Source: an uncultured Candidatus Binatia bacterium (GTDB taxonomy: Bacteria; Desulfobacterota; Binatia; Bin18). From it: a stretch of 64,000 nucleotides of DNA. The stretch covers positions 1,985,684 to 2,049,683 of the forward strand of contig OY282457.1 of assembly GCA_958296235.1 (NCBI GenBank). Reading direction: 5' to 3'. Under the pieces are notes generated by a model. That model searched no databases. It was not told the origin of the DNA and worked only from the letters and a program-made list of their open reading frames with translations. The translations under genes and the position numbers were made by a program. Below are positions 8,291-45,972 of the stretch, piece by piece. The first letter of the stretch is position 1. Every line of letters starts with the position of its first letter.

Positions 8291-8519
8291 CCGGCTCCCC
8301 GTCCCGCCTTGGCGATGGTTCCGCCTCACACCGGTTCTGACGCGACAGCCGCCAAAAAACTCGTAAACTTCTCAGAGTTCCAACTGAATATACAAGTAGG
8401 AAGGGCTGCCCCATGCCGGCCCCTGGCTCCCAAAAAATACCCTGCTCCAAATTTCTTTTGAAAAATCCGTGAACTTTTCTGATCCCATTTAGTATCTACC
8501 TAATGAAAGGAGAGAGTAT

Positions 8520-9617: not shown

Positions 9618-9754
9618 CCCGTCGAGCAAGAGGGCCGTGAACGTTTTGACGAGAGAGAAAGGAGCGAGAACGATGGCGACCGTATTAATTGAGCAGGGTG
9701 GCGGTCCAGACGGTCGGCACCTCATGGAGAGCCAAGAATACGAAGGAGGCAGCA

Positions 9755-10282
9755 ATGGATGAGTCCCGATTCCGAGTCAGCTACTACTATAGCGAAAAAG
9801 AAGGAACCATCGCTATCGACCTTGACGACCTCCACAAGATGCTGAACACCGGTCACGGCTACCACAAGATCATCAAATCCCGGCCTTCGCGTTTCTGCGA
9901 TGTCGTCGGCCGCAGCAGGCTCAATGACGACGGAGTGCTCGTATTCGTAATGGAAGCCGGAGCACTTGAGATAGAACCGATGAACTTTGACCCCGTTCCG
10001 CGCCTGGTGGACATAGGAGAAATAGGACGAGAACATCCCGTCCCCATGCCTAATGTCTCCAAGCCGGGAATCGCCACCGAGGAGCACCCCCCCATCCTGC
10101 CCTGTAAATGGGAAACCATCACCACCTCAGATGGGGTCAAGAAGGATGAGGAGACCGTCACCATTGCTCTCGACGACCTCCAACAGATGTTGAACACCGG
10201 CTACGGCTATCACGAGATTGCCAAATCTCGGGCGGCCGGCTCTGTCTCTATCGTCCGCCGCCGGACTGCACCGTCCTGTTGA
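9755..10282 (+). CDS. Hypothetical protein with an internal tandem repeat
   Basis: RBS aggagg then ATG 9755. Two ~30-aa repeats: TIAIDLDDLHKMLNTGHGYHKIIKSR and TVTIALDDLQQMLNTGYGYHEIAKSR. No family recognised. Confidence 0.45.
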   Translation: MDESRFRVSYYYSEKEGTIAIDLDDLHKMLNTGHGYHKIIKSRPSRFCDVVGRSRLNDDGVLVFVMEAGALEIEPMNFDPVPRLVDIGEIGREHPVPMPNVSKPGIATEEHPPILPCKWETITTSDGVKKDEETVTIALDDLQQMLNTGYGYHEIAKSRAAGSVSIVRRRTAPSC

Positions 10283-10382
10283 CGCACAGGACGGACAACC
10301 GATATGGAAGCTCCCTCATGCCCCGGGCCAAGAGGGTTTTCATCATTCCGGGGGAGAGAGCAGGGGAATAAAGGAGTCTACT

Positions 10383-11384
10383 ATGACGTGGTTTGAAGAA
10401 CTGACCGGCTTTTCAGAAGAGTCCCCCGAGCAGGTACGGGCGAATCTCAGCGTGGACGGTCAGGTGTTGCGATCTCATGTCACCGGGAAAACGCTGGTGT
10501 GTGGCGAACTGGAAACGCCGTCCTTGGCCGAGTTGCGCCACCGGGTCCAAGCGAGCGGGTATGAGACTGGAGCCATGACGATCCGCGAGGTCGTTGCCAA
10601 CGTCCAGAAGTTGCACACGAACGCGGCGAATACAGGCGCGTTGTTTCAGGTCGCGTCCCAGTTCAATCTGCTTGAAATGACGGGTCCAGGGGTCACCCCT
10701 GAGGAGGGGGTTGGCATTTATGAGCATGATCTCACTCAGGGACCGGCGTGTGCCATCGCGGCTGGGGCGGGCACGATCTATCGCAACTACTTTGCCCCCG
10801 TGAACGGACAGACCGGGCAATCCGCCACCAACCAAATCGATTGCCTGGCGGATATCGGCGCGGCCCTGGGCAATACCGAGAATCGTCTGTGGGACATGCG
10901 CAACGGGTATGCGTGGCCTTCATATGAGGGGTTAGTCGAGATTGGGGAGTGCCTGCGCGCGGCGAGTAAGCCGGAGCTGGATGAGTTGCGCCAACTGCTC
11001 CGCATCGGTCTTCAGTGGCACACGCAAGTGACGCTCGATGACTGCACCCATACGGTCTCCCAAGCCTGTTGTTCTGCCTTGCCGGTCGGCTATCTGGATC
11101 ATTCTCATGAACTGTGGACCGAGTTCGCCCGGCTCGTTCTGGAGGCGACCTACGAGGCCACGCTCTGCGCGGCTCTCGTGAATGCGCGCCAAACCGGCAA
11201 CAAAACGGTATTTCTGACCCTGGTCGGTGGCGGAGTGTTTGAGAACGACCCCGATTGGATTCTCAGCGGCCTCCAACGCGCTTTGGACCTCTACCAGGAT
11301 GCTGCTCTTGACGTCGCCATTGTTAGCTATGGGTCGTCAAATCCAGATATCCAGCATCTTGTGAGCCACACAGATTACGATTAG
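10383..11384 (+). CDS. Hypothetical protein, possibly a divergent macrodomain / bacterial PARG-like (DUF2263-like) ADP-ribose hydrolase
   Basis: RBS aaggag then ATG 10383. FLTLVGGGVFENDP resembles the GCGVFGNDP motif I recall from bacterial PARG/DUF2263 macrodomains. An upstream NAAN..FQVASQFN..GPG..PEE segment loosely resembles the diphosphate-binding loop. The assignment is tentative. Confidence 0.4.
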   Translation: MTWFEELTGFSEESPEQVRANLSVDGQVLRSHVTGKTLVCGELETPSLAELRHRVQASGYETGAMTIREVVANVQKLHTNAANTGALFQVASQFNLLEMTGPGVTPEEGVGIYEHDLTQGPACAIAAGAGTIYRNYFAPVNGQTGQSATNQIDCLADIGAALGNTENRLWDMRNGYAWPSYEGLVEIGECLRAASKPELDELRQLLRIGLQWHTQVTLDDCTHTVSQACCSALPVGYLDHSHELWTEFARLVLEATYEATLCAALVNARQTGNKTVFLTLVGGGVFENDPDWILSGLQRALDLYQDAALDVAIVSYGSSNPDIQHLVSHTDYD

Positions 11385-11680
11385 CTGCAACATAACGAAC
11401 CGTGATTTACCGGCAGTTGTGACAGATGCAGCAATACCGCTGGCAGCGGGGTCGGGCGGTATCTTATTCAGGAGAGAGCGCCAATAAGTTGTCGGCCAGC
11501 GTTTCGATCCGCTCGCGCTCAGGAATGCAGTCCAGCCAGTCGCGCGGGCCGTTGATAAAGCCGGTCACACTCTCCACGGTGGTCTGCGACCGCTCAATAT
11601 TGAACAAGTGGCTGTGTTGGACAGGATGAGCATCTCGGCGTTCGGAATGCGGCGCGATAAGACCACCGAGTTAATGCACG

Positions 11681-13063
11681 TCACCCCGGAAAAGTCACCT
11701 CAGGCACGGTCCGCATAGCTCGTTCAATCGCCTCAGCCGGATACTCGTAGCGTTCGAGTTTTCCGGCGTGGTAGTCGGCATAGGCGCTCATATCAAAATG
11801 ACCGTGGCCGCTCAGATTAAACGCAATGACTTTCTTTTCGCCGCTTTCCCGGCACTGCACAGCCTCATTCATCGCCGCGCAGATTGCGTGGTTGGACTCG
11901 GGCGCCGGCACTATCCCTTCGGCCCTGGCAAACGCCACACCGGCCTCAAAGGTCGCAAGCTGATCAAACGCGGTGGCCTCAATATGACCGCTGTGCGCCA
12001 GCGCACTCACGTGTGGAGCCATGCCATGATAGCGCAGCCCGCCGGCATGGATGGTCGCCGGCATAAACGAATGACCCAGCGTGTACATCTGACAAATCGG
12101 CGCAACACCGCCAGCGTCGGCCCAATCCCAGGTGAAAGAACCTTTGGTTAAGGTCGGACAGGCGGCCGGCTCAACTGCGATAATACGCGTGTTCTTGCCC
12201 TGCTTGAGTTTCTCTCGGACGAACGGAAAGGCAAAACCGGCAAAATTCGATCCGCCCCCGGCGCAGCCGATGACAATGTCCGGGTACTCGCCGGCCATCT
12301 CCATTTGGCGTAATGCCTCTTCACCAATAATGGTTTGATGCAGCAACACATGCGGGAGAAAAGAGCCCAGACTGTACTTTTTCGTCCCGCCGGACTGTTG
12401 GGCGGCTTCAATCCCTTCTGAGACGGCCAGCCCCAATGAGCCGGGATGGTCCGGGTCTTCAGCCAGAAACCGCCGTCCCACTTCGGTTCGGTCGGACGGA
12501 CTGGCAAACACCTCAGCGCCATAGGTCGCAATCACGTGGCGACGATAGGGCTTTTGCTGAAACGAGATACGGACCATATACACTTCGCAGCCCAGCCCGA
12601 ACATATTGCATGCCATAGCCAGGGCCGTGCCCCACTGGCCCGCGCCCGTTTCTGTCGTCAGCGTCTTGATACCTTCTTGCTTGGCATAAAACGCCTGGGC
12701 CACAGCCGTGTTCGGCTTATGTGAACCAACCGGACTGACACCTTCATATTTGTAATAGATGTGGGCTGGGGTCTGGAGCGCCCGCTCCAGCCGGCGGGCC
12801 CGAAAAAAGGGGGTTGGTCGCCAGAGTGTATAGATATCGCGGACCGGCTCCGGGATTTCAATATAGCGCTCTTGGCTGACATCCTGAGCGAGGAGGGCTG
12901 TTGGCGTAAAGGAAGCCAGGTACTCGGGTGTGACCGGCTGTTTGGTTTCCGGGTGGAGCGGCGGCATCAGGGGTGCGGGCATGTCGGCATTGATGTTATA
13001 CCACGCCGTGGGCATCTGGTGTTCTTCAAGCAGATATTTGGTCTGGTCACTCATGCGGGTCAT
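11681..13063 (-). CDS. trpB2: TrpB2-type tryptophan synthase beta-like PLP enzyme
   Basis: The 460-aa N-terminus [20 protein letters not shown] and the PLP lysine context are TrpB2-specific; the protein is full length. Confidence 0.85.
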
Positions 13064-13089
13064 CCTTGGAACGGGTCAGCGTCCGCTCG

Positions 13090-14943
13090 CTACGCCTGTG
13101 TCACGTCGCGGACCGCTCCACGGGCCGCGCTGGTTGTCAGCGCCGCATAGGCTTGCAGGGCGGCTGACACCGGGCGTTTACGTCCGAGCGGCTTGTAGGC
13201 GTCCTTGCCTTTGGTCTCCATCTTTTTGCGCCGTTCGGCCAGCTCTTCTTCCGAGAGCAGGACGTTGATCGAGCGCTGCGGGATATCGATACGGATGATG
13301 TCGCCCTCTTCGACCAGGGCAATAACGCCGCCTTCCGCGGCTTCGGGCGACACATGCCCGATCGACAGGCCGCTGGTGCCGCCGCTGAAACGACCATCAG
13401 TCACCAGCGCGCATTGGGCGCCCAGATGTTTGGACTTGATATAGGAAGTCGGGTAGAGCATCTCCTGCATCCCTGGTCCCCCGCGTGGGCCTTCATAGCG
13501 AATGACCACCACATCGCCGGGCCGGAGCTGATCGCCGAGGATGCCCTCGCAGGCCGCGTCTTGCGATTCGAATATACGTGCCGGACCCTCCATGACCCAG
13601 ATGGATTCGTCCACGCCGGCGGTTTTGACAATACAGCCGTCCTCGGCCAGATTGCCGTACAGGACGGCCAGACCACCATCCTGGCTGTAGGCAAACTCGG
13701 TCGAACGAATGCAGCCCTTGATCGCGTCCTTGTCCGGGGTGTCATAATACGGATTGTGTGCAAAGGCTTCTTTGGTGCGGATATTACACGGCGCCGCCAG
13801 GCTGCGTTTGCGGGCAAACTCGTCCGGCTGCTCGCGTCTGATGTCGTTCGCTTCGAGCATTTCGCCCAGTGTCAGGCCCGTCACCGTCTTGACGTTGGTA
13901 TGCAGTTTCCCGGCGCGCTCCAGTTCACCCAGAATCGTGGCGATGCCGCCAGCGCGGGCGCAGTCTTCAATATGGTAGATGGCCGAGGCTGGGGCGAGTT
14001 TGCATATACAGGGCACGCTGCGCGACAGCCGGTCGATATCAGCCATCGTGAAATCGACTTCCGCCTCTTGGGCCGCGGCTAACAAGTGGAGAACCGTGTT
14101 GGTCGATCCACCCATAGCGATATCCAGGGTGATCGCATTTTCAAAGGCTTCAAACGTGGCAATGCTGCGTGGCAATACCGAGTCGTCGCCTTCGACATAA
14201 TAGGCGTTGGCCATCTCGACAATGCGTTTGGCGGCCCGCTGAAAGAGTTCCCAGCGCAGGGCGTGCGTAGCCAGGATGGTGCCATTGCCCGGCAACGCCA
14301 GGCCGATGGCCTCGTTCAGGCAGTTCATGCTGTTGGCGGTAAACATGCCGGAGCACGAGCCGCAGGTCGGGCAGGCCGCCTCTTCCATCTTCTCGACATC
14401 TTCATCGCTGAGCGAGTCGTCACCGGCCCCGATCATGGCGTTGACCAGATCGAGCTTGGCCAGGCCGGTAGACAGCTCGGTCTTACCGGCCTCCATCGGA
14501 CCGCCGGAGACAAAAACGGCCGGAATGTTCAGCCGCATGGCCGCCAGCAACATACCTGGGGTGATCTTGTCGCAGTTAGAGATGCAAATCATCGCATCGG
14601 CTTTATGCGCCTGAACCATGTACTCGACACTATCGGCAATCAACTCGCGGCTGGGCAGAGAATACAGCATCCCGTCGTGGCCCATGGCAATGCCGTCATC
14701 CACCGCGATCGTATTGAACTCGACGCCGTAGCCGCCGTTGGCATCCACCACCTGTTTGACCCGCTGTCCGATCTCGTGCAGATGGACATGACCGGGCACG
14801 AACTGGGTAAACGAATTGGCAATGGCAATAATCGGTTTTTGGAAATCTTCCTTTTTCATACCGGTCGCCCGCCACAGGGCGCGCGCACCGGCCATACGCC
14901 GTCCTTGGGTGGTGATGCTGCTCCGAAATCCGCGCTGTTGCAT
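13090..14943 (-). CDS. ilvD: Dihydroxy-acid dehydratase
   Basis: 617 aa with the CDKITPGM [Fe-S] motif and IlvD/EDD signatures along the full length. Confidence 0.9.
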
Positions 14944-15160
14944 AATGCTGTACCCTCCTCATGATGAGTAAACGTGCCAACATTTGCCTGTCTGTTGGAG
15001 GGCGCGTTTACTCATTTGCAGTAAGCTCGAAAACATAGCATCTTTTTTTCCGGCAGTCGTTAGGCTGATGATCTTTTATATTTATCCTGGCCGTGCCAAG
15101 AGTGGTCAGGAATGTAGTGAAGGCTGCTGGAAGATGGTAGACAAACAAAAGAGGTGATTT

Positions 15161-15367
15161 ATGGTCAACCTGGAACCCCTGACGCTGGCGGAACTCATTA
15201 ACTCACTCATAGGGATAGCTGGCTTGTCTCTGGTGGCGTGGGGCATTAATGAGATGCGCAACAGCAACATTGACCGAAAGGCAAACGCTGAAGTCCTGCA
15301 GGGCGTAGCCCGGACGCTGAATGCGCATACCGCTGCTTTGGAGCGTTTGCTGGGGAAGCGCGAATAA
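15161..15367 (+). CDS. Small hypothetical protein (68 aa), one predicted TM segment
   Basis: Good RBS aaagaggtg 6 nt before the ATG. No homolog recognised. Confidence 0.3.
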   Translation: MVNLEPLTLAELINSLIGIAGLSLVAWGINEMRNSNIDRKANAEVLQGVARTLNAHTAALERLLGKRE

Positions 15368-15433
15368 AGAAGCCTGTCTGCGCCCCGCGTCCAGCAGCGT
15401 GAGCGGAGATGTAAGAAGGAGGAATACAGCATC

Positions 15434-16195
15434 ATGGCAGGGCAAGTAGACGGAAAAATTGCATTGGTGACTGGCGGCGGGTCGGGCATTGGCCGGTCTG
15501 CGTCATTAGCGTTAGCCCGCGAAGGCGCATCGGTCGTTGTTTCCGATGTGGTTGTTGAAGGTGGAGAGCAGACGGTCAATTTCATCAAATCCGCCGGGGG
15601 CGAGGCCGTGTTTGCGCAAACCGACGTGGCCCAGGCTGCGGAAGTCGAGGCATTAGTCAAGCAAACGGTGGAGACGTATGGGCGGCTTGACTGCGCCTTC
15701 AACAACGCTGGAATTGCCGGCGCGGCGGCGCGAACCGCTGACTACACCGAGAAACACTGGGAGCGGGTGATTGCGATTAACCTGACCGGGGTATGGCTGT
15801 GCATGAAGTATGAGCTCCAGCATATGCTGACGCAGGGCAGCGGCGCGATTGTCAATACCGCCTCAGTTGCCGGTCTGGTCGGTTTTCGGAGTGGACCGGC
15901 CTACGTGGCGGCAAAGCACGGAGTGGTCGGACTGACTAAGACCGCGGCCTTGGAATACGCCAAATCCGGCATTCGAGTGAACGCTGTCTGTCCGGGGGTC
16001 ATCCGCACCCCGATGTTCGAACGCGGCCTGGAGATAGACCCGCGCATAGAAGACGGCATGACCGCCAAAGAGCCGATTGGTCGCTTGGGAAAACCTGAGG
16101 AGATTGCCGAAGCCGTGGTCTGGCTCTGCTCCGACGCGGCGTCGTTTGTGACTGGCCATCCGATGGTTGTTGATGGTGGTTGGGTTGCCCAGTAG
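15434..16195 (+). CDS. SDR-family oxidoreductase
   Basis: TGGGSGIG Rossmann motif, NNAG, and YVAAK catalytic Y-x3-K. Confidence 0.85.
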
Positions 16196-16387
16196 GACCA
16201 TATTCTTCCCAGCGACCCGTACGCTGTCCCGCTCTCTGCCAGGGAGCGGGACAAGAGCGGACAGCACGCAACCTGCCTACGTCTTTTGCCCAAACGCGCT
16301 CACCGTCTCCGAGCGAGAGCCGGTCTCTTCAACATGCAGGCTGACGCCATTTATTGGGATGCGTGTCATGCGCAATCCTTCCGAGCG

Positions 16388-17458
16388 CTATTTCTTTGGC
16401 CGACCCACTCGCGGGATGCCGGCCATCGTTTCGTTTGCCAGTTCCGTGCGGACGAGCCGGACGCCGTCTGCCAAGGCTTTCATTTTTCCGCGCGCGGCGG
16501 TCCGAGAGCGGGGGATCATGCCACAGTCCGTACACGGGTAGAGTTTGTCCGGCGCGACATAGGGCAGCGCGGCTCGAATGCGTTCCGCAACGGTTGCAGG
16601 TGTCTCAACGTCCTCTGTCCCCACATCAATAACGCCAACCATGAGGTCTTTGCCTCGGGCCAGTTCGAGGACGGACGGATCAACGCCCGAGGCCGCGCAT
16701 TCGACTGAGATCATATCGAGCGTACTGGTACGCAGAAGGGGCAGCGTGCGGTGATAATGGCGCCAGTCCGTATTCGTTGTCTTCCAGGCCAGGACCTGCG
16801 GAACGCCATAGCCGTAGCAGATATGGACCGCGGTCTTTGCCCGGACTCCCTCGGCCGCGGCTTCCAGCGTGGCGATACCCCACTCCTCAACCGCATCGAG
16901 ATAGATATTAAAGCACGGCTCATCAAACTGAATAATGTCACAGCCGTTTTCGGCCAGCTCGCGCGCCTCATCATTGAGGACCCTAGCCAAATCCAAGGCG
17001 AGACGCCGCGGCTCCCCGTAGTGCTCATCCGCCAGGGTGTCTGCGGTTGTCATCGGACCCGGAAGGGTGACTTTCACCGGCAGAGTCGTGTGTCGTTTGA
17101 GGAAGCGGAGCGCGTCCAGAAAAATGGCGCGAGGTCGTCGGACCGGTCCCGTTACCCGCGCGACATCTATCCGTGTCTTATACCGACCGCCGCGCGTTTC
17201 CTTTTTGACCATACGGTTGAAATCAATCCCGGTCAGTCCCTCGGTAAATCCCCAGATATAGTGCCGCCGTCGCTGTTCGCCGTCGGTTACAATATCCATG
17301 CCGGCGGCGTGCTGATCGACCACGGCCAGACGCACGGCATCGTCCTGGCCTTCGCGCAAGGCGTCAGCCTCAAGCCGCAGGGAGACAGACGAGATGTGGT
17401 TCTGCGGGGCGAGCCACGTCGGGCGCGGCAGACTGCCGGTAATCATTGTTTTCAGCAT
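16388..17458 (-). CDS. Cobalamin-independent methionine synthase (MetE C-terminal domain)-like methyltransferase
   Basis: IIQFDEPCF and PCTDCGM match the MetE zinc-ligand regions (IQIDEPA.. / ..DCGLKTR). The ~350-aa single-domain form is known. Confidence 0.7.
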   Translation of the reverse strand: MLKTMITGSLPRPTWLAPQNHISSVSLRLEADALREGQDDAVRLAVVDQHAAGMDIVTDGEQRRRHYIWGFTEGLTGIDFNRMVKKETRGGRYKTRIDVARVTGPVRRPRAIFLDALRFLKRHTTLPVKVTLPGPMTTADTLADEHYGEPRRLALDLARVLNDEARELAENGCDIIQFDEPCFNIYLDAVEEWGIATLEAAAEGVRAKTAVHICYGYGVPQVLAWKTTNTDWRHYHRTLPLLRTSTLDMISVECAASGVDPSVLELARGKDLMVGVIDVGTEDVETPATVAERIRAALPYVAPDKLYPCTDCGMIPRSRTAARGKMKALADGVRLVRTELANETMAGIPRVGRPKK

Positions 17459-20217: not shown

Positions 20218-21171
20218 ATGAAGATGAGGCATGTATATACATTAGTATTTTTTATCGTCGTGGCCTGGGTGTTTGGGCCGACCCCGGCACGGGCGGGTTC
20301 GGGCTTTTACCTCAGCAGCGAGTTGGGGGCCAACTTCGCCTCCGGGGTGGACCTCAATGAATACGACAACGACCGGGCCAGCCACTGCGACGAATTCCAC
20401 AACCCGCTGTATGCGTCCGTTCCCGAATGCACAGACCCCGCGGGCCGGGGCGACCGTTGGATGAGCGAATTCGACGATGCCGAGGGTATTCTGGCCGGCA
20501 CCGCGGCCGGCTACAGCCTGCGGGACCGCTTCCCGGACTACTTTCTGGGCCGCTTCCGGCTGGAGTTGGAATACTTCTACCGCAACTCCGAATACGACCA
20601 GAAAGCCGACATCATGACCGGGGCCGACGGGGGTGGCTCGGTCGGCGAAAAGCTGGCCGGGGAGATCGTGCAGGCCGAAGCCACGGTCGACGGTATCGCC
20701 TCGCATAATCTGTTCGGGAACCTGTATTTCGACTTTTTCAACTCCAGCCGCTTCACGCCCTACATCGGCTTCGGGGTCGGCGTCGGCTTCACGGACATGG
20801 AGTATGGGAATCTGTGGGTCCGCAATATCGACCCGGAGCGCAGCACGGCCGGCGCGGGCTTGCCCAATGTGGACCAGATCCGCCAGAGCCTCGCCGGCAC
20901 AGTCACCAGCGAGCAGGCCGACCTGAGCGACACACTGTTCGGCTACCAGGTGTTGTTCGGCGTGGACTACGCGCTGACGGAAGCACTGTCACTCGGTGTC
21001 AAGGGCCGCTGGGTCAACTTCGACAGCTTCAAGGACAGCAGCCCGTGGGACCGCTTGCGCAGCCACGACTCCCAACTGAGACTCGACGGCAGCGAACCGG
21101 TGCTGCACCACGTCCCGACCGATGACATGGAAATGTTCGGCGTCAGCCTGAACCTGAAATATCATTTCTAG
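20218..21171 (+). CDS. Outer-membrane beta-barrel protein (OmpW/opacity-like), paralog 1
   Basis: Signal peptide (..ARAGSGFYLSS) and alternating amphipathic strands. The C-terminal LNLKYHF ends in Phe. Confidence 0.6.
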   Translation: MKMRHVYTLVFFIVVAWVFGPTPARAGSGFYLSSELGANFASGVDLNEYDNDRASHCDEFHNPLYASVPECTDPAGRGDRWMSEFDDAEGILAGTAAGYSLRDRFPDYFLGRFRLELEYFYRNSEYDQKADIMTGADGGGSVGEKLAGEIVQAEATVDGIASHNLFGNLYFDFFNSSRFTPYIGFGVGVGFTDMEYGNLWVRNIDPERSTAGAGLPNVDQIRQSLAGTVTSEQADLSDTLFGYQVLFGVDYALTEALSLGVKGRWVNFDSFKDSSPWDRLRSHDSQLRLDGSEPVLHHVPTDDMEMFGVSLNLKYHF

Positions 21172-21227
21172 GCGGTTCCGGCCGCGCGGCCGCCTGTGGC
21201 CCGACGCAGAACGGGAAGGAGGACAGG

Positions 21228-22163
21228 ATGCCTATACGACGGACATTCCTGGCGGTGGCGGCTGCCATCGGTCTGCTCGTGCCGGGTTCTGCGCGCGCCG
21301 GGTTCTATCTGAGCGGCGACATCGGGGCCAATTTCGCCTCCGGGCCAGATCTGGAGGGACGCGACAACGACCGGGGCGGCGTGTGCGACGAGTTCATCAA
21401 TCCGCTGTTTGCCGACGTGCCCGGTTGTACCGACCCTATCCGACGGGGCGACAGTTGGATGAGCAAATTCGACGGCGCCGTGGGCATTCTGGCCGGCACC
21501 GCGGCCGGCTACAGCCTCCAGGACCGGTTTCCTGATCACCTGCTCGGCCGTTTCCGCTTGGAGATGGAGTACTTCTACCGCAACTCAGAATACGACCGGG
21601 ACGCCGACATTCGGTTCGGCTCGGGAGCGTCAGTCGCCGCGCATCAGAACGGTGAACTCGTGCTGGCGGAAGATCGGCTGGGCAGCATTGCCGGGCACAA
21701 CCTGTTCGGGAACCTGTATTTCGATTTCTTCAACACCAGCCGCCTCACGCCCTACGTGGGCTTCGGGGTCGGCCTTGGCTTCACCAATGTAGACTATGGA
21801 ACGCTCGGGGCGCTGAATACCGACCCGGCCCGCATCACTTCCGGTGCGGATTTATCCAACGCGGATCAGATCCGCCGGAACCTCGCCGGGACGGTCGTGA
21901 GCGAGCAGACCAACCTCGACGATACGTTGTTCGGCTACCAAGTCCTGTTTGGGGCAGACTACGCGATTACGGAAGCGCTGTCGTTGGGCGTGAAGGGCCG
22001 CTGGGTCGCCTTCGACACATTCCGGGACGGTGGAGGGTGGGACCGTCTGCGCAGCCACGAGTCCCAACTCAGACTCGATGGCAGCGAACCGGTCGCTTAC
22101 AAGATCAAGCTTGACGACATCGAGTTATTCGGCGTCAGCCTGAACCTGAAGTACCACTTCTAG
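21228..22163 (+). CDS. Outer-membrane beta-barrel protein, paralog 2 (tandem duplicate)
   Basis: About 70% identical to the preceding gene along its length, with the same C-terminal LNLKYHF. Confidence 0.6.
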   Translation: MPIRRTFLAVAAAIGLLVPGSARAGFYLSGDIGANFASGPDLEGRDNDRGGVCDEFINPLFADVPGCTDPIRRGDSWMSKFDGAVGILAGTAAGYSLQDRFPDHLLGRFRLEMEYFYRNSEYDRDADIRFGSGASVAAHQNGELVLAEDRLGSIAGHNLFGNLYFDFFNTSRLTPYVGFGVGLGFTNVDYGTLGALNTDPARITSGADLSNADQIRRNLAGTVVSEQTNLDDTLFGYQVLFGADYAITEALSLGVKGRWVAFDTFRDGGGWDRLRSHESQLRLDGSEPVAYKIKLDDIELFGVSLNLKYHF

Positions 22164-22234
22164 TATCTCAGAGTCAGGCCGCGGCCCGGACCAAAGGCCC
22201 GGCAACCGTCTCAGCCGGACGCTCTTAGGCTTCA

Positions 22235-22310
22235 CGAACCGGGCGGACGCGCTGGTTATAGAGCATTTTGCGCAGAGTGAATCTCAGGACGGCTCGTTCG
22301 GGGCGCGGGA
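22235..22310. repeat. Copy A of a ~75-bp element derived from a GST-gene 3' end
   Basis: About 95% identical to 23750-23827. On the minus strand it encodes ..LRKMLYNQRVRPVREA*, against the GST C-terminus QLRKMLYNQRARPVPE*. Confidence 0.7.
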
Positions 22311-22484
22311 CAATTGCTGCGCCGTGTTCTTGCAGACCCGGAGATTACGGGGCTGGAGCGCGTTCGGGTATTGCTACGATCCAAAGGAGCGCCAGCTATC
22401 TTTCTTTTTTCACCTGCGCTATGCTGCTGGGCTTCTGAAGACGAGCGTCAGAATATTACCACGCTCCAAAGGAGGATACGGACT

Positions 22485-23582
22485 ATGACAGCACGACTCG
22501 ATTCGCCGATGCAGATCGGCATGGCTGCGATCTGCCAAAACCCGGCGCAGAAAATCTCGGACTATGAGGTCTACAAAAATGAGATTCGGTTGGCCGATTT
22601 GGCCGAGCCGCTTGGATTTGATTCGATTTGGAGCGTTGAGCACCACTTTACCGATTACACTATGGTGCCCGATGTGCTCCAGTTCCTGACCTATATGGCC
22701 GGTCGGACCAAGACGGTGAAGCTGGGCTCGATGGTCGTCGTACTGCCCTGGCACGATCCCATGCGGGCGGCAGAAGAAATTGCGATGCTGGACGATATGT
22801 GCGACGGGCGGTTGATTCTGGGGCTTGGGCGCGGCGCCGGGCAGGTTGAGTTCGAGGGCTTCCGGGTCGATATGGGTGAGTCCCGCGAACGCTTTGTCGA
22901 GGCCGCGGATATGGTTCTGACCGGACTCGAACGGGGCTACTGCGAGTATGCGGGTCAGTATTATACCCAGCCCAAGAAAGACATCCGTCCCAAGCCGTTC
23001 AAATCCTTTAAGGGCCGGACGTATGCCGCCGCGGTTTCACCCGAGTCGTCCGAGATCATGGCCCGTCTGGGCGTCGGCATCCTGATCATTCCCCAGAAGC
23101 CGTGGGAAGACGTAGCGGTGGAATTGGATACGTACCGGACGATCTACCGTGAGGCCAACGCTGCCGAGGCGCCGGCGCCGGTCGCCGGCGGCTGGGTCTT
23201 TTGCGATAAGGATGCCGGCCGTGCCGAAGAGCTGGCTCGGCGCTACATCGGCGCTTACTGGCAGTCGGCCATGAAGCATTACGATTTTGGTGGTGACCAT
23301 TTCGCCAAGACCAAGGGCTACGAATACTACGGCAAGATGTCTGAGGCCATGGGCAGTGTCGAGGGCGTGACCGACTTTTTCCTCAACCTCCAGGTCTGGG
23401 GCACGCCGGACCAGTGTTTTGAAAAAGTCCTTGAGATCCGTTCCAAGATTGGCTGCGATGCCTTCACCGGTGTGTTCAGCTATGGCGGCATGCCGTATGA
23501 GGACAGTGAGCAGAGCATGCGGCTGTTCGCGGCCGAGGTCATGCCGCGCTTGCAGCAGTTGGACCAAAAAGCGGTGGCCTAG
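22485..23582 (+). CDS. LLM-class flavin-dependent oxidoreductase
   Basis: Start at MTARLD (RBS aaaggagg). LGFDSIWSVEHHF.. is an LLM signature. Confidence 0.8.
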   Translation: MTARLDSPMQIGMAAICQNPAQKISDYEVYKNEIRLADLAEPLGFDSIWSVEHHFTDYTMVPDVLQFLTYMAGRTKTVKLGSMVVVLPWHDPMRAAEEIAMLDDMCDGRLILGLGRGAGQVEFEGFRVDMGESRERFVEAADMVLTGLERGYCEYAGQYYTQPKKDIRPKPFKSFKGRTYAAAVSPESSEIMARLGVGILIIPQKPWEDVAVELDTYRTIYREANAAEAPAPVAGGWVFCDKDAGRAEELARRYIGAYWQSAMKHYDFGGDHFAKTKGYEYYGKMSEAMGSVEGVTDFFLNLQVWGTPDQCFEKVLEIRSKIGCDAFTGVFSYGGMPYEDSEQSMRLFAAEVMPRLQQLDQKAVA

Positions 23583-23744
23583 TCAGCCGTCCGTCCTGTT
23601 CGGAACATCCCCCTCCCCCCCTTTAACCAAAATACGGCGAGGCCCCAAGGGAAATACCCTGGGGCCTTGCGTGAATTGATGCGCTACCAGAACTGGCTGT
23701 CGCAGCTGTGGCTCGGGTGAGCGTCGCCTCACCCGACACTCCAA

Positions 23745-23827
23745 CTATTCCGGGACCGGGCGGGCGCGCTGGTTTATAGAGCATTTTGCGCAGAGTGAAT
23801 CTCAGGGTGGCTCGTTCGGGGCGCGGG
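23745..23827. repeat. Copy B of the GST-3'-end-derived element
   Basis: ctattccgggaccgggcgggcgcgctggttTatagagcattttgcgcag... matches the true GST 3' end (25800-25847) with 2 mismatches, then continues like copy A. Confidence 0.7.
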
Positions 23828-25741
23828 GGGCAGCACCGCCCTCACTTCCTGTCTGTAAGGAACCAACTCTCCATACGGCCCCCATACCACGGGTATCCAC
23901 AGCAGCAACGCCTCCGCTTCATGTCTGTGAGGAGCCAGCTCCAACGCTTTGTCACGATAGCGTATTGCCGTTTCTGCGTATGCTGGACCGGAGGCGGCTA
24001 TTGTCCCATAGAGCCTTGCCAGCGCCAGGTAGACCCGCCAATTCTCGGGTTCGCTGTCGATGGCCGCGGCCGCCTCGGTATCCACGAGCACGAGCAGCCT
24101 GCTCTTGGACAATATGCCGAGCATTGGCCAGAGTCTCGCTACATTGTCAAACAGGACCAGTCTGGGATAGTTCGCGAGTGGCTTGAAGTCGGTCAGCGCC
24201 TGCTCGAAACAGTCGAGGGCTTGATCGAAGGTGCTTGTCGGAGCGACCATTCGTCTGACAGCGCTGGCCGCTGAGTATTGCGCCTGGTTGGTGAGGAGAC
24301 CCACCCCCACCAGGGCGAGCGCTCCCACGCCCAGGCCGATGCGAAGCCCGGTGTGCCAACCGGTCGCTCTGCGCCGCCGGGCCGGCGCTCTCTCTCCCCT
24401 GCCCCTTTCGAGGGTAACGACGAAAGCGAGCAGCAGGCTATACTGGAGAGAAGTGGTGGGGATATTGAAAAAGAACTGACTCTGCACGAAATGGCCCATC
24501 AAGGTCGCGCCGACAAACAGCGTCAGCACTTGCTCTCTGAAATCCATTGTCCCTGTGGCGGCGCGCACCACGACGGAGAATGTGAGTGCCCAGAGAGCAA
24601 GGTAGCTCGACAGACCGAACAGGCCCGCTGTCGTAAGCACTTCGAACATCTCGCCATGTGCCGCATCGCTGATCTTTATAGAGCTCCCGAGTCCAGAGGC
24701 ATACCGGCCGAAGACCACTATATAATTCTCCGGACCCCAGCCCAGGAGCGGCTCATCGACGAATCCTTTCACACCTGCTTCCCAGAGCGCTAGGCGGCCT
24801 CGAATGCTGAGAAACTTTTCGCCCGGTAACACTTCGCTTGTCCTGGGTGCGAACGCACTGTGGGGTGGTATGTTGAACGGTAAGATATCGGGCGTGAGAA
24901 ACACCGACGCAATCAGGATGGCCGCGCCGCCAAGGGTGCCGGTCAATCCAATTGCGGCCAGCCGAACAGGTCGCCTCCTCGCCAGAAACACAAATAGTAC
25001 TGCTGAGAAGCCCAGACCCAGGATAAGTCCGAGGAGCGCCCCCCGGGTGCCGGTCAAGATGAGGACCCAAATATTGATAAGTGCCGTGCCGCCCCAGAAG
25101 CATCTCCCGCCCCAGAGCAGGAGAAAAAAGTTCTTCCCAATCCGCTGCGCCGGGATGAACGACCGTATGAGGAAACCCAGGGCGAGGATGACGTTGACCA
25201 GCATGTAGGTGCCGAGATAGGTCGGGTTGCCGAACGAGGCAGATTCCCTATATGGGCTGAAGGCGAAAAGCGAGAAGTCCACGTTGGCGGAGTACTGACT
25301 AAGGGCCAGCAGGGCCACTATCAGACTGACACCCAGATTGAGGTTCAGCAGAACGCCCCAGCCCCGGAAAGTTCGGACCACGGACGCCACAACGACAGTG
25401 AAGACAAACCAATGGGCCAGGTCCACCACGCCCTGCATCCGTTCATAGGTTGACCAGAAACTCCGCTGGACGCTGACCCCAAAGCAGGCTGCAAGTATTG
25501 CCACGCCGAGGGAAAGGGCAAGCAGTATCAGCAACCACGAACGCGGCGGACGATAGGCAGGGCGCAAGATAGCGAGCAGCGCCCAGAGACCGAGGATGAT
25601 CTCGATAATAGTCCGCGAATACAGGGCCTTCCCCACGATGAAAGGGAAAATCGTCTGAGGGGTGACGACCAGGGGCATCAGGAGGAGCAGGCCCAAGCCG
25701 GTCCAGATACCGGAAAGCAGGGCTTTTTCTAACATGCGCAC
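23774..25741 (-). CDS. O-antigen ligase/polymerase-like polytopic membrane protein with a C-terminal TPR region
   Basis: Ten-plus TM helices with a WaaL-like periplasmic loop, followed by a soluble TPR-like C-terminal region. The last 13 codons are supplied by repeat copy B. Confidence 0.5.
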   Translation of the reverse strand: MRMLEKALLSGIWTGLGLLLLMPLVVTPQTIFPFIVGKALYSRTIIEIILGLWALLAILRPAYRPPRSWLLILLALSLGVAILAACFGVSVQRSFWSTYERMQGVVDLAHWFVFTVVVASVVRTFRGWGVLLNLNLGVSLIVALLALSQYSANVDFSLFAFSPYRESASFGNPTYLGTYMLVNVILALGFLIRSFIPAQRIGKNFFLLLWGGRCFWGGTALINIWVLILTGTRGALLGLILGLGFSAVLFVFLARRRPVRLAAIGLTGTLGGAAILIASVFLTPDILPFNIPPHSAFAPRTSEVLPGEKFLSIRGRLALWEAGVKGFVDEPLLGWGPENYIVVFGRYASGLGSSIKISDAAHGEMFEVLTTAGLFGLSSYLALWALTFSVVVRAATGTMDFREQVLTLFVGATLMGHFVQSQFFFNIPTTSLQYSLLLAFVVTLERGRGERAPARRRRATGWHTGLRIGLGVGALALVGVGLLTNQAQYSAASAVRRMVAPTSTFDQALDCFEQALTDFKPLANYPRLVLFDNVARLWPMLGILSKSRLLVLVDTEAAAAIDSEPENWRVYLALARLYGTIAASGPAYAETAIRYRDKALELAPHRHEAEALLLWIPVVWGPYGELVPYRQEVRAVLPPAPRTSHPEIHSAQNAL

Positions 25742-25799
25742 CTGGGGCGTTGAACGAATCTTGTAATATGAAATTTATCCCTGACGCTCAATTGAACCG

Positions 25800-26522
25800 C
25801 TATTCCGGGACCGGGCGGGCGCGCTGGTTGTAGAGCATTTTGCGCAGCTGGTCTTTCTCTTCCTGTGAGAGCTTGGAAACGTCGAACCCGAGGTCGCTGC
25901 CGACGGCCATGCCTTTTTTGACACCCTCGCGTTCCGAGAGTTCATCAGACCAGCGCTTGAAGTATTTGAACTCGTTGATGTCCTGCCCCTGCGCTTCCCA
26001 GTTGACCGCCCAGGGGTAACAGATCATGTCGGCAATAGTGTATTCGTTCCCGGCCAGATAGGGCTGCCGATATAACTGATTGTTCAGCACGCCGAACAGG
26101 CGATTGACCTCATCCGTAAAACGCCGGACCGCATAGGTCTGATCGCCCTGGTCGTCGCCCAAACGGCGAAAATGACCGCACTCGCCGCTCTTGGGGCCCT
26201 GGTTGGCCATCTGCCACATCAGCCACTGATTGACCTCGTAGCGGACGCGGACATCCTGGGGATAAAACTGGCCGGCCTTCTCGGCGATATACATCATCAT
26301 CGCCCCGGACTCGAAAATGCTGATCGGCTCGCCCCCGCCGAGCGGTTCGTGGTCCACCAGGGCTGGCATCCGATTATTCGGGCAGATCCTGAGAAACTCG
26401 TCCGTGAACTGATCCCCCTGGGCGATATTGCACGGGATCATCTTGTACGGCATGTCGCACTCTTCCAGCAGAATGGTGACTTTCTTACCGTTCGGGGTGG
26501 GCCAGTAGTGTAAATCGATCAT
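25800..26522 (-). CDS. Glutathione S-transferase (YghU/YfcG-like)
   Basis: 240 aa with an N-terminal thioredoxin-like GST fold (HYWPTPNGKKV) and a C-terminal helical domain. Confidence 0.8.
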   Translation of the reverse strand: MIDLHYWPTPNGKKVTILLEECDMPYKMIPCNIAQGDQFTDEFLRICPNNRMPALVDHEPLGGGEPISIFESGAMMMYIAEKAGQFYPQDVRVRYEVNQWLMWQMANQGPKSGECGHFRRLGDDQGDQTYAVRRFTDEVNRLFGVLNNQLYRQPYLAGNEYTIADMICYPWAVNWEAQGQDINEFKYFKRWSDELSEREGVKKGMAVGSDLGFDVSKLSQEEKDQLRKMLYNQRARPVPE

Positions 26523-36140: not shown

Positions 36141-38906
36141 CTAGGCCACTCCGCGTCGAGACGCGTCGTCCAGACGATCGCTCACAATCCTGGCGATATT
36201 CAGGAATATCCGAGCGCCAATCCGGGGGTAGCGTTTTTGCATACGCTGCAAGAAGCGCTCGTCCACCGCAATCGCCTCAGCCTCGTCCACGGCAATCACG
36301 TCCGCGGTCCGCCGATTCTGACGGATGAGGGCCATTTCGCCAATCACATCGCCGCGGCCCATGCTTCGCAGCAGCTTTGACGAGCCGTCAGTATTGAGCC
36401 GGGCGTCTGCCCTGCCATTGATCAGCACAAACATCTCCCTGCCCATTTCTCCTTGCCTGACGATGAACTCACCCTTGGCAAAGGTCCGAAATTCGCCCAT
36501 CAGGGTGACGATCTTGGCTTGCACGGGACGGAGCCCGGCAAAGAGGGGAATCGTCTTATGCGGGTCGCGGCCGAGTTTCAGGTATAAGACGTCCCACAGG
36601 GTGATGATCTTGGTGGTGGCGAGCAAGGCCGGCAGCAAGAGCACATCCGCCCCAAAGGCGACGATCATGGTGGCCGCCGAGAGCATACCAAATTCCCGGA
36701 TCGGGACAAAAGTCGAAAAATACAGCACCAGAAAGCCGAGCAATAAGATGACGGAGGCATACAGGCTCGGCTTGCCCACCGTCCCGAGGGTGTGGAGCAG
36801 GGCGGTCTCCTGGTCTGGGGCCGTATGCACCTCAGCGCTCAGCCTGGTCATCAGGTGCACCGTATTATCCACAGCAATGCCGAGTGCAATAGCGGCGATA
36901 ATGCTGGTCCCCAGGTTGAGCACCGCGCCGGAGAGCCCCATCAGTCCGAAAAAAATGACAATCGGAAAGATGTTCGGAATCATGGCGATCAGCCCAATCC
37001 GAGCGGACAGAAACATGGCCGCCATAATAACGAAGATGACGCTGGCAGCCAGCGACAGACTGCGGATCTGGCCAGTAATAATATCGCCGGTTGTCTGGGT
37101 CAGGAGAATCAGATTGCCGGTGGGACGGACCTTGAGATCGGGCGGAAAGCGCTCCTGAGCGTAGGCGCTGATCCGCTCCGCGAGCGCGGAGATCTCCTGT
37201 GAGCCCGAGAGGGTTGTGCGGACAAGGATATTCGAGCGCGCAAAGTCCGGGCTGGCGACGGACCGAAAACTGGTCGGACTGCCGGCCACGAGTTGCATGA
37301 CAGCGCGGAGTTGAGACGGCTCCTGCCAGAAGGTGGTGGGCTTGTCCGCTGGCTGAGCCGCAATAGTTTCGTCGCCCGGACCGACCAGAACCCCACCGCC
37401 GCCGGACTGCGCCCCGCGGTCGAGCAGCTCGCAATAGTCCACGAACGAAACGGTTTTATCCACACCGGGCAGGCCGTCGATATAGGTCTGGAGGTCTTTG
37501 ATCCGGCGCAAGGTATCCCACTGTTTCATGACGTCTTTTTCTTCGCCATCAATCACCACATAAAAAGCCATGCTGCCGACCAGATGCTCATTAATGGCAT
37601 CGGTCGCCTGGCGCACGGGGTCGTTGGGACGAAAGAAGGACTGAAAATTAGAATCGACCTGAATCGAGGTCAGGTTCCATAGCGCCACCCCGGCGCAGAG
37701 CAGCGCCGCGGCAATCACGCTCAGGCGGTTCTGAATGGCAAAGCGACCGATACGCCGCAGACCCGTGGTGACCCCAGGGGCAAACGCGGCCGCGGGGTTG
37801 GCCGGGAGACGCAGCTGCATGAGACTGGCCGGAACCAGGAGAATGGATAAGACAAAAGCGATCAGAATGCCGACCGACGAGAAAATACCCATCGCGCGAA
37901 TACTGCTGAGCGGGTTTATGCCCAAGGAGAGAAAACCGAGCACAGTTGTCAGCGCAGTAATACAAATCGGCGGGCTGGTTTTTCTGAGGGTCTCCAACAC
38001 AACGTCCCGCACTGAGCCATCTGGCTGGGCCAACTCATAATACTCAGCCACCACGTGGAGCGAATAGGCTGTCCCCAAGACGAGAATCAGGGGCGGCAGG
38101 GCAATACTCCCCAGGCTGAGGCTGCTCCCGGCAAGGACCATGATGCCCAGCGTCCAGATGAGACTGACGAGAATCGTCAGGGCCGGCAACAAGACGCCGC
38201 GGACGGAACGAAAACTCACGAAGAGCACAAGAACAATAGCGAGCAGGGTCAGGGGAACAAAGCGGCTCAAATCGCTCTGCATGGCCCGGGCGGAATAGAC
38301 TTTGAAGCGGGGCAGGCCAGTATAAAACAGTTGTTCCGGCCCTGTTGCGTGTTCTGCGTCTATGATGGCCTGGATGTGCTCATCAATCTCCCGCGGCATG
38401 AATGCAGCGTCGTCCATATCCGCGAAGAAGATATTGATGGCCGCGGCCTTTCCGTCTTCGGAGACCAGATTCTTCAGGTAAATAGGCCGGTCGGCCAACG
38501 TCTCCCGGAGCGCATCCAGACCGGCCTGGTCGGCAGGGATGTGTGTGACCAACCGCGGCGGCTCGACCACATCGGCAATCGGGTCAAGCGCATTGGTCAG
38601 GCTGAGCACCTCCTGGACCCCCTCGATATTCTCCAGCGCTTCGGTCAGGCGCGTAATTTTGTGTAAGACGTCCGCGGTATAAATGTCATCGGCCAGCAGC
38701 CCGACCACCCCGACTTCATCGCTGCCAAAGAGCTGGCGGACCTCAGCGTAATACTGGCTGTCCGGGTTGTCCTGGCTCAGGAGGCTTTCAACCGAGCTGT
38801 CCAGACGAATGTCTTTTGCGTACACCCCAAAGACGCAGGTGAGGATGAAGAGCAGAAGGAGCAGGGTCTTTGGCCGGTTGACGATGAGCAGGTAGAGCGG
38901 TTCCAT
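36141..38906 (-). CDS. MMPL/RND-superfamily (HpnN-like) exporter fused to a C-terminal cyclic-nucleotide-binding domain
   Basis: Two 6-TM bundles with large periplasmic loops. The C-terminal ~120 aa carry the cNMP-binding signature (GEFIVRQGEMGREMFVLINGRA...GEMALI..RTADVIA). Confidence 0.75.
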   Translation of the reverse strand: MEPLYLLIVNRPKTLLLLLFILTCVFGVYAKDIRLDSSVESLLSQDNPDSQYYAEVRQLFGSDEVGVVGLLADDIYTADVLHKITRLTEALENIEGVQEVLSLTNALDPIADVVEPPRLVTHIPADQAGLDALRETLADRPIYLKNLVSEDGKAAAINIFFADMDDAAFMPREIDEHIQAIIDAEHATGPEQLFYTGLPRFKVYSARAMQSDLSRFVPLTLLAIVLVLFVSFRSVRGVLLPALTILVSLIWTLGIMVLAGSSLSLGSIALPPLILVLGTAYSLHVVAEYYELAQPDGSVRDVVLETLRKTSPPICITALTTVLGFLSLGINPLSSIRAMGIFSSVGILIAFVLSILLVPASLMQLRLPANPAAAFAPGVTTGLRRIGRFAIQNRLSVIAAALLCAGVALWNLTSIQVDSNFQSFFRPNDPVRQATDAINEHLVGSMAFYVVIDGEEKDVMKQWDTLRRIKDLQTYIDGLPGVDKTVSFVDYCELLDRGAQSGGGGVLVGPGDETIAAQPADKPTTFWQEPSQLRAVMQLVAGSPTSFRSVASPDFARSNILVRTTLSGSQEISALAERISAYAQERFPPDLKVRPTGNLILLTQTTGDIITGQIRSLSLAASVIFVIMAAMFLSARIGLIAMIPNIFPIVIFFGLMGLSGAVLNLGTSIIAAIALGIAVDNTVHLMTRLSAEVHTAPDQETALLHTLGTVGKPSLYASVILLLGFLVLYFSTFVPIREFGMLSAATMIVAFGADVLLLPALLATTKIITLWDVLYLKLGRDPHKTIPLFAGLRPVQAKIVTLMGEFRTFAKGEFIVRQGEMGREMFVLINGRADARLNTDGSSKLLRSMGRGDVIGEMALIRQNRRTADVIAVDEAEAIAVDERFLQRMQKRYPRIGARIFLNIARIVSDRLDDASRRGVA

Positions 38907-38916
38907 GTGGTTTGTG

Positions 38917-39010
38917 ATGAGTGGCTAGTGATGAGTGGTTAGTGATGAGTGATGAGTGGCTAGGGGCTAGTGGTTAGTGGTTAGTGATGAGTGGTTAGTA
39001 GTGACGGACA
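38917..39010. repeat. Tandem short repeat (GTGATGAGTGGTTA-like units)
   Basis: gtgatgagtggctagtgatgagtggttagtgatgagtgatgagtggctag... gives 6-7 degenerate units. The stretch is AT-richer than its flanks. Confidence 0.8.
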
Positions 39011-39240
39011 ACTGACAACTAGCAACTGCCATAGCGGTTGGCAATTCTGGCGGCCACAGCTATAGAGCTACGAAGGTATGCAGTGTACGAGTTGCGGCTT
39101 TGCAAATCAGACGGGGATGAAGTGGGGCGTGTCCGCGCCCATTCCCGTCTATCGCATTGTGGAGGAACGCGAGGCCCGTCATCCCCTGGAGGGAACCGTC
39201 CAGACCGGCCTGACGCCGCTGACCGGACGGGAGCAGGAGT

Positions 39241-39292
39241 GGGGGCCTGGATTCCTGCTTCCGCAGGAATGACAGGTGGCTACACAGCATCG
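39241..39292. repeat. 'GGAATGAC' hairpin repeat, copy B
   Basis: Identical to copy A over ~50 bp. Confidence 0.8.
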
Positions 39293-39406
39293 TAAAACGT
39301 ACTAAGCCGGCAGGGCGCAAAGGGCCGTGACCGCCCCGCCCAGACAACGAAGGCCCTGAAACCCTCGTCTTGACCCGCCGGCAACACCTGCGCTAAGCCG
39401 ACCAAG

Positions 39407-40552: not shown

Positions 40553-40560
40553 CCTTCAGA

Positions 40561-44025: not shown

Positions 44026-45972
<1,947 letters not shown>

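Follow-up and report, generated by a model that had tools for sequence, protein, structure and literature searches.

At the 3′ end of icd in Escherichia coli, the insertion of e14/phage 21 leaves a displaced 163-bp pseudo-icd end across the insert, and the two copies are not quite identical (PMC6379469). In streptococci, cis-mobilisable elements (CIMEs) and microCIMEs at fda and at a tRNA-Lys gene lack an integrase, have att repeats that are copies of the gene 3′ end and form tandem stacks downstream of it (PMC7563491). Displacement arrays, known from the effector-immunity genes of the type VI secretion system in Vibrio cholerae and from the C-terminal displacement of Rhs proteins, also form without an integrase: incoming DNA is anchored by homology in a conserved gene, and the former 3′ part ends up further downstream, orphaned along with the genes behind it (PMC5361080). 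Here we analyse a stretch of 64,000 nucleotides (the window) from an uncultured Candidatus Binatia bacterium (contig OY282457.1, positions 1,985,684 to 2,049,683) in which three direct copies of the 3′ end of a glutathione S-transferase (GST) gene delimit a luciferase-like monooxygenase (LLM) gene, LLM365, and a gene of the O-antigen ligase/polymerase family, Wzy_C. A sequence-only reading had proposed two successive single-gene insertions, each duplicating the resident target, and had taken them as the mark of a recurrent cassette-acquisition process at gene ends. Comparison with relatives shows that the Wzy_C segment is an insertion and LLM365 is not; the outermost copy comes from another GST allele type, and the repeats may be scars of homology-driven recombination.

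The order of the locus is as had been proposed: two outer-membrane protein (OMP) paralogues, copy A of the GST end, LLM365 on the plus strand, copy B, Wzy_C on the minus strand, and GST itself with copy C. From the GST gene leftwards its features are as follows.

25800-26522, minus strand: GST gene, the target, of the YfcG/YghU-like glutathione-dependent disulfide oxidoreductase family (Pfam GST_N/GST_C).
25800-25847, minus strand: copy C, the functional GST 3′ end, 48 nt through the TAG stop codon, with the TAC variant.
25736-25799, minus strand: insert start or leader, 64 nt between the GST stop and the Wzy_C start, with no counterpart in relatives.
23774-25735, minus strand: solitary Wzy_C gene (Pfam Wzy_C, E=1e-14), in the same direction as GST.
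23794-23827, minus strand: ext34 at copy B, 34 nt common to copy A and not in GST; possibly the native C-terminal coding end of Wzy.
23745-23793, minus strand: copy B, a hybrid, A-like on the left (TAT) and C-like on the right (CCCGGAATAG), with one inserted nucleotide in this strain.
23631-23744, minus strand: ancestral GST downstream flank, with a hairpin (GGGTGAGCGTCGCCTCACCC) at 23715-23734; it directly follows the GST stop in relatives.
22485-23582, plus strand: LLM365 (Pfam Bac_luciferase, 2.9e-67), convergent with GST.
22310-22484, plus strand: upstream region of LLM365 (U), homologous to relatives as far as TGTC(C/A)CGCG, where ext34 joins it.
22276-22309, minus strand: ext34 at copy A, 34 nt common to copy B and not in GST.
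22225-22275, minus strand: copy A, the relic tail of a 241-aa-type GST allele (LRKMLYNQRVRPVREA*).
20218-22224, plus strand: OMPa-OMPb paralogue block, with genes at 20218-22163 and a 61-nt spacer adjoining copy A.

Region reading and repeat searches agree on the three direct minus-strand copies, of which copy C is the terminus of the 240-aa GST open reading frame (ORF) at 25800-26522, ending in ...QLRKMLYNQRARPVPE*. Copies C and B are spaced 2055 nt apart, and B and A 1517-1518 nt. Patterns for the 28-nt core and the 34-nt extension, with up to three mismatches allowed, matched only at these known places in the 64 kb, against a chance expectation of 0.00 in shuffles. The further stretch that A and B were said to share to the exclusion of GST, put at some 30 bp, measures 34 nt (ext34) and is identical at 32 of the 34 aligned positions. 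That the displaced copies still encode LRKMLYNQRxRPV does not hold for copy B of the window, where a 1-nt insertion (TATAAAC) puts it out of the GST frame; the insertion is missing in four of the five other strain contigs described below. The cores differ by C/T changes and one indel, a pattern that is not adenine-specific; since, in addition, no Pfam-annotated ORF of the window is a reverse transcriptase, a diversity-generating retroelement was dropped as a candidate. We likewise rejected the idea of dispersed repeats, because neither the core nor ext34 recurs in the window, in 90 fetched loci or in the JGI metagenomes; ext34 was found in no relative among these loci, and a search for additional copies of the element marking other 3′-end insertions, which had been recommended, came back empty over the same ground. 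No tRNA, tmRNA or Rfam element was found near the GST locus.

The exact GST protein occurs on three long contigs (L001-L003) of one HiFi metagenome, ERZ19489113, which are 98.4-99.4% identical to the window and identical to it in layout, and two further contigs of that metagenome (L084 and L090) have the same layout. Because the diagnostic bases (TAT for copies A and B, TAC for copy C) are preserved throughout the six sequences, the structure is real and is fixed in this species-level cluster. For comparison between species, a scan of one genome per species, which put the window in Candidatus Binatia, supplied 19 Binatia GST loci at 85-97% protein identity and 61 more distant ones, and self-comparison for repeats covered about 0.5 Mb of Binatia sequence. 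The GST itself scores 200 bits against NCBIfam PRK13972, under the family cutoff, and has a dN/dS between strains of 0-0.04.

The clearest result of this comparison concerns the Wzy_C segment. In L004-L012 and L016, whose GST genes are 88-93% identical to that of the window at the DNA level, homology on the copy C side ends exactly at the GST stop codon, and the GST end with the next 45-110 nt aligns with copy B and its downstream sequence, hairpin included. The Wzy gene is present in none of these loci. Counting L017, the GST stop directly joins the copy B flank in eleven relatives. The 2.05-kb Wzy_C segment is therefore a lineage-specific insertion that separated the GST end from its old flank and has a 48-nt duplication at its borders, and copy B, the distal one, is contiguous with the recipient's ancestral downstream flank, as an import scar should be. 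The search for empty sites in relatives was fruitful. In L020 and L022, the OMP genes come next after GST, and both Wzy and LLM365 are absent from between them.

The nearest non-allelic homologues of the Wzy protein are 60-63% identical and sit in polysaccharide gene clusters. They end about 45 residues earlier, so that the last ~45 residues of the window protein form a non-conserved tail, which ends in copy B. It had been said that copy B supplies the last 13 codons; in fact the last 17 lie within the repeat shared by A and B, and some six of these in the GST-homologous core, in a frame different from that of GST. The peptide encoded by ext34, LPPAPRTSHP, weakly matches the native end of P0005, LPPRSSQPN* (shuffle p=0.015), and by this likeness the Wzy segment may originally have ended with ext34, in which case copy A would be the relic of a Wzy-bearing allele. 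Between strains the Wzy gene has a dN/dS of 0.94-1.95, compared with 0-0.04 for GST and LLM365, and in L090 it is split by a frameshift (L090 8312-10170). Its dS of 0.02-0.05 is the same as that of its neighbours; the gene was inherited jointly with its flanks and is under relaxed or diversifying selection, and swapping of cassettes between strains, which we also considered, was rejected because the dS values are equal.

The second supposed insertion does not survive the same comparison. LLM365 is found at 97-98% amino acid identity, with the same downstream flank and 0.4-6 kb from GST, in L004, L005, L007-L010 and L016, and in L006 just its 3′ end lies inside the fetched locus, about 10 kb from GST. 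A second GST end was found in none of these eight. With eight relatives showing it near GST in the absence of copy A, LLM365 is a conserved GST neighbour and not a cassette. It is under strong purifying selection (dN/dS between strains 0-0.02), and its orientation is opposite to that of Wzy and GST, with a conserved upstream region of its own. Of the two single-gene insertions proposed, then, the one that stands is that of Wzy_C, with its empty sites and 48-nt duplication; conserved synteny in relatives, named beforehand as an outcome that would speak against cassettes, holds for LLM365 and not for the lineage-specific Wzy_C. Upstream of LLM365 the relatives run on past ...TGTCACGCG into a divergent gene (MSKRQSRQ...), whereas the window continues after TGTC(C/A)CGCG with 28 unmatched bases and then the GST-like core. 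The junction of U with ext34 falls at C(A/C)CGCG, a candidate GC-rich microhomology.

Two side observations concern this neighbourhood. By eye, from ORF translations, the space between GST and LLM365 in L004-L016 (about 10760-16700) holds PIN, HigA and ribbon-helix-helix (RHH) toxin-antitoxin genes together with DUF262, QueC/DpdA-like and TIR-like genes. This cargo, of toxin-antitoxin and defence-like character, has no flanking repeats and no recognisable integrase in the relatives, and the GST-LLM365 interval as a whole looks, from its gene content, like a general plasticity zone or hotspot. A motif of about 30 nt, GCGTTCGGGTATTGCTACGATCCAAAGGAG, occurs twice upstream of LLM365 (22360-22389 and 22445-22474) and also upstream of other genes in relatives (L004 20694-20715; L008 18208-18229); it has no Rfam match and may be a shared leader or regulatory element.

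The origin of the two displaced copies also differs from what had been proposed. The ending read from copy A is RPVREA*, which exceeds the RPVPE* of the resident gene by one codon, and a large Binatia clade of 241-aa GSTs, comprising 29 protein clusters with the L022 protein among them, ends in RPVREK*. This is the clade (L020, L022) in which GST adjoins OMP genes. Copy A is thus the tail of this other allele type (241 aa, RPVRE plus one codon), joined to the LLM365 upstream region at a candidate CNCGCG microhomology, and not a duplicate of the resident end, which removes the claim that each insertion had duplicated its target. The OMP block is 88% identical to L022 at the DNA level, as against 68-78% to the closest relatives (L008, L009), whereas GST, LLM365 and a downstream pair of short-chain dehydrogenase/reductase (SDR) and LLM genes are all closest to L008/L009-type relatives, so that the locus appears to be a mosaic of two allele types. 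The discordance, which is one of pairwise identities and not of a tree, suggests either import or paralogue sorting of the OMP block. The flank downstream of copy A has no significant homology to the ancestral GST flank, and a search for an intact RPVREA* GST next to OMP genes gave only an unrelated match, L091.

Copy B, for its part, joins the left part of A (ext34 and TAT) to the right part of the resident end and its flank in all six strains, and is a recombinant: an A-like copy and a C-like one exchanged sequence within the core. Another history, in which A and B are what is left of tandem GST paralogues deleted almost entirely, would agree with the different allele type of A. It would require both deletions to end at the same base and to share the same 34 non-GST nucleotides, no relative among the 19 Binatia loci has two or three full GST copies here, and the right half and flank of B are the resident gene's own; we regard it as scarcely credible.

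The same signature is present at trpB2 in the window, as had been noticed, and at a further gene in a relative. The elements at trpB2 are these.

11644-11782, minus strand: proximal copy, made up of the final 102 nt of trpB2 (11681-13054) and the 37 nt that follow.
8126-8264, minus strand: distal relic copy, 91% identical to the proximal one.
8265-11643, plus strand: insert of 3.38 kb with an ADP-ribosylglycohydrolase gene (8520-9617), a small ORF (9755-10282) and a macrodomain/PARG-like gene (10383-11384), and no recombinase.

The repeat is thus 139 nt long with 91% identity. In L087 and L089, trpB2 (93% and 95% protein identity) is followed within about 50 nt by a reductive-dehalogenase-like gene, which makes them empty sites. 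Within the insert, the ADP-ribosylglycohydrolase gene has a third-position GC content (GC3) of 0.84, much higher than in neighbouring genes. The 333-aa protein is a member of a large family that Pfam does not annotate; its predicted structure (pLDDT 97) matches bacterial poly(ADP-ribose) glycohydrolase (PARG) and macrodomains and not a recombinase. On the strength of this model the insert (8520-11384) looks like a module for ADP-ribose removal; it has no PADLOC match. Exact look-ups of the window trpB2, in 457-aa and 460-aa forms, returned no record. The third case is in L020, where an LLM gene has a second copy of its final 161 nt, 95% identical and 2.56 kb further downstream (1887-2057 and 4444-4615), around an insert of about 2.4 kb with an AlgX-like gene and two small genes, the last of which reads in frame into the relic. 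L022 is without this insert and is its empty site. Where the two L020 copies differ, they agree with the orthologue on opposite sides, the proximal one on the left and the distal one on the right, which is the pattern expected of a crossover within the repeat. The two small genes, it may be added, carry a domain (FFLHxTPxD...TGQY) that is fused to some Wzy_C homologues. The signature is therefore seen at three unrelated genes, with repeats of 48, 139 and 161 nt, copy identities of 91-98% and an empty site in relatives for each, always in other species-level lineages. A 298-nt repeat in L086, examined as a candidate, is a plain tandem gene duplication.

Repeats of such varied length, with no motif in common, could also be produced if foreign DNA were captured by end-joining at staggered double-strand breaks, fill-in of which would duplicate 48-161 nt of the target. 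The 28-nt filler-like stretch with its microhomology at the U junction is of the kind expected, and both trpB2 copies share the same lineage-specific 37 nt after the stop codon. Capture at breaks cannot account for the ext34 and TAT that A and B have in common, nor for the other allele type of A; the copies are non-identical (91-98%), so that trpB2 would need a long decay, and the L020 pattern is hybrid and not one of one-sided decay. This explanation is accordingly an unlikely one.

A dedicated system was looked for in several ways. No recombinase Pfam family, and so no sign of the cognate recombinase that was to be sought by the earlier suggestion, was detected among the window ORFs, in the three inserts or among the annotated genes within 10 kb in L001-L003. 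Folding of the 94-nt unit stays within the range of shuffled sequence on both strands (z -0.44 to +1.5), with no attC-like structure, and the ends of the three inserts share no significant motif in a shuffle test; a likeness of ends that had been seen by eye, GTTCAAT..TGAGCG, failed the p<=0.03 filter of that test. No duplicated GST end is present in 75 other GST loci, no IMG/VR viral contig carries the GST or trpB2 core, and no intI near an attI was found in the window or the 10-kb flanks. Nothing found points to dedicated cassette-acquisition or new gene-capture machinery, and the recurrent cassette process suggested by the sequence-only reading is unsupported for want of a recombinase, an attC-like fold, a shared end motif and further GST-end duplications. 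An integron-like system, in which a structured site would serve to add genes one at a time at gene 3′ ends, would at first sight explain why an 82-nt shared unit (ext34 plus the left of the core) comes after each small gene unit, and why two such loci lie within 64 kb. Beyond the shuffle-like folding on both strands and the lack of an intI-like gene, it founders on LLM365, which runs in the opposite direction and is conserved in relatives, and on the repeats of the three loci, which are mutually unrelated and have no other copies where searched, and its likelihood is very small. Little more can be said for a trans-acting Binatia recombination system that would capture short segments at arbitrary gene 3′ ends, using as its site a copy of the target's own end; such a system would be integron-like without attC or a linked integrase, ext34 would be part of a cassette-borne site, and we consider it quite improbable.

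The main rival is of another kind. The repeats may be the attL and attR of integrase-mediated elements that supply a replacement gene end, decayed to integrase-less tandem remnants of the CIME/microCIME type, with ext34 as an element-side attP arm. Direct repeats that copy the target 3′ end do flank the inserts here and leave the gene intact, as with integrative elements; the topology is the same as that of attL/attR with tandem accretion and fits equally well. The GST reading frame is restored exactly to the stop, two units end in the same 34 nt, and hybrid copies are what a crossover inside the core would yield. Integrase-less, att-flanked decayed elements are, moreover, common in other bacteria (PMC7563491), and e14 leaves its 163-bp pseudo-icd end (PMC6379469). 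Set against this, the three inserts, the 64-kb window and the 10-kb surroundings in three strain contigs contain neither an integrase nor a remnant of one. Recurrent use of an att site, or an attP on phage or element DNA, was not seen in the 75 other GST loci, none of which has a second GST end, nor in IMG/VR, where the viral contigs carry neither core. No integrative and conjugative element (ICE) or integrative and mobilisable element (IME) occupies the same site as a partner at the strain loci, in relatives or in the 75 GST loci. Three targets would require three specificities, all of them decayed, and the LLM 'element' is conserved chromosome that runs on into the neighbouring gene in relatives. 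Decayed att sites are in our judgement a real possibility, of perhaps one chance in four.

What has to be explained, then, are the observed insertions and empty sites, the hybrid structure, the allele types and a neighbourhood free of recombinase genes. To the reading that the repeats are scars of homology-driven recombination in plasticity zones, and not working sites, we give about half of the total weight; host homologous recombination is favoured because the targets are unrelated, the repeat lengths vary, the copies are non-identical or hybrid, and no recombinase is found. DNA from divergent Binatia alleles would have entered by host homologous recombination, with a conserved gene as anchor. 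This could happen through a single, Campbell-type crossover of a circularised fragment carrying a gene 3′ end and foreign genes, or through a homologous anchor at one end and an illegitimate join at microhomology at the other; a double event using a short homologous arm is a variant of this, and at least one illegitimate join, that of U to ext34, would come in addition. Either route would leave an intact gene end at the gene body and a displaced, dead copy beyond the new DNA, beside the old downstream flank. The common denominator of the loci would be that the inserted DNA itself carries the target 3′ end and that exchange takes place within that copy, in a Campbell topology.

At the GST locus at least two events would be superimposed under homology-driven recombination. 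The first would have brought in the OMP block with a 241-aa-type GST tail as a relic, in front of which stood 28-34 nt probably derived from the end of a Wzy segment, and joined it to the LLM365 upstream region at the CNCGCG microhomology to give copy A. In the second, a 2.05-kb Wzy_C segment ending in the same 34 nt would have entered at the GST end of the resident chromosome by recombination, and crossing over within the 48-nt core would have produced the hybrid copy B and copy C. We infer that RecA-type enzymes rather than an integrase were at work, and the same holds for whether the incoming DNA was circular or linear and for which event at GST came first. The relics would remain substrates for deletion: a crossover between C and B would excise the Wzy gene precisely, and the expected products are a circle with the junction Wzy tail-ext34-core-CGGTTCAATTG and an empty site reading GST-core-TTGGAGTGTCGGG.

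Several points weigh against homology-driven recombination. It does not explain how a circle, or a structure with two copies in it, could have arisen in the first place. No donor allele of the form GST-Wzy-ext34-relic tail-OMP was found among the fetched loci, in the JGI metagenomes or in the search for an RPVREA* GST, and there is no mosaic tract in GST, which is uniformly 92-97% identical to its closest relatives. At trpB2 it is the proximal and not the distal copy that is closer to orthologues, a misfit to a simple donor-proximal model that fits either decay of the relic or a Campbell crossover near the right end. A repeat boundary exactly at the GST stop, with two units ending in the same 34 nt, is also expected of a defined att site, and the searches for a recombinase and for further copies were confined to the window, the fetched loci, the 10-kb flanks and the JGI metagenomes.

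Some other features of the window may be recorded here. A CRISPR array with at least 10 repeats of about 37 nt (Rfam CRISPR-DR16) lies in the region of 40635-41344 and 41809-48723; it is adjoined by cas genes of the GSU0053/GSU0054/Cas3 type (type I-U/I-G-like), and a 39-nt tandem pair stands just ahead of it at 40558-40635. A dispersed 56-nt repeat with a hairpin (ATTCCTGCTTCCGCAGGAAT), at 1673-1728 and 39240-39295 and also downstream of GST in L013, L014, L019 and L020, resembles repetitive extragenic palindromes (REP) or miniature inverted-repeat transposable elements (MITE) and is common to Binatia genomes. A GC-rich palindromic repeat of 46 nt, TTCCCTCCCCCCTTGAGGGGGAGGGCCAGGGTGGGGGG, occupies three intergenic places (6233-6278, 41725-41770 and 55485-55530), and a tandem array of 7-, 14- and 21-nt units (GGTTAGTGATGAGTG...) lies downstream of an MMPL gene at 38895-39018.

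The locus is of use chiefly for the reconstruction of genome evolution in Binatia; it opens no long-standing question and overturns no expectation. It offers a strain-replicated example of gene-order novelty in an uncultured phylum without recognisable mobile-element genes, and its relic gene ends record events from which the recombination partners can in part be reconstructed. Three scars in about 0.5 Mb of Binatia sequence suggest that the process is not rare there, and this bears on how integration hotspots form without mobile elements. For annotation, odd C-terminal tails can be traced to such relics; a relic copy is what the fusion ORFs of Wzy_C and of L020 read into.

As to the known systems, e14 carries its own integrase and is about 15 kb long. 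Like icd with e14, the genes described here keep an intact 3′ end and have a displaced near-copy beyond the inserted DNA; unlike e14, the inserts are 2.0-3.4 kb and contain no recombinase, and 75 other loci show no further use of the GST site. The resemblance to integron cassette arrays goes as far as single-gene units in series, each followed by a repeated recombination-like sequence, and stops at intI and attC hairpins, of which there are none here, at the mixed gene orientation and at repeats that are the target gene's own end. With CIMEs the structure is compatible in its gene-end repeats, in its lack of an integrase and in its tandem order, but CIMEs are derived from, or occur alongside, ICEs or IMEs using the same att site, whereas no such partner or integrase was found here and one of the 'units', LLM365, is ordinary conserved chromosome. 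Displacement arrays keep toxin tips with immunity genes under selection, whereas the pieces here are short homologous tails that come from enzymes of housekeeping type and have no evident function, and copy B, at the least, marks a homologous crossover and not an illegitimate one. The process we favour is nevertheless of the kind proposed for those arrays, which are attributed to homology-facilitated illegitimate recombination in successive events (PMC5361080). The footprint is thus of a kind already known, and the locus is a fresh example of a known recombination scar.

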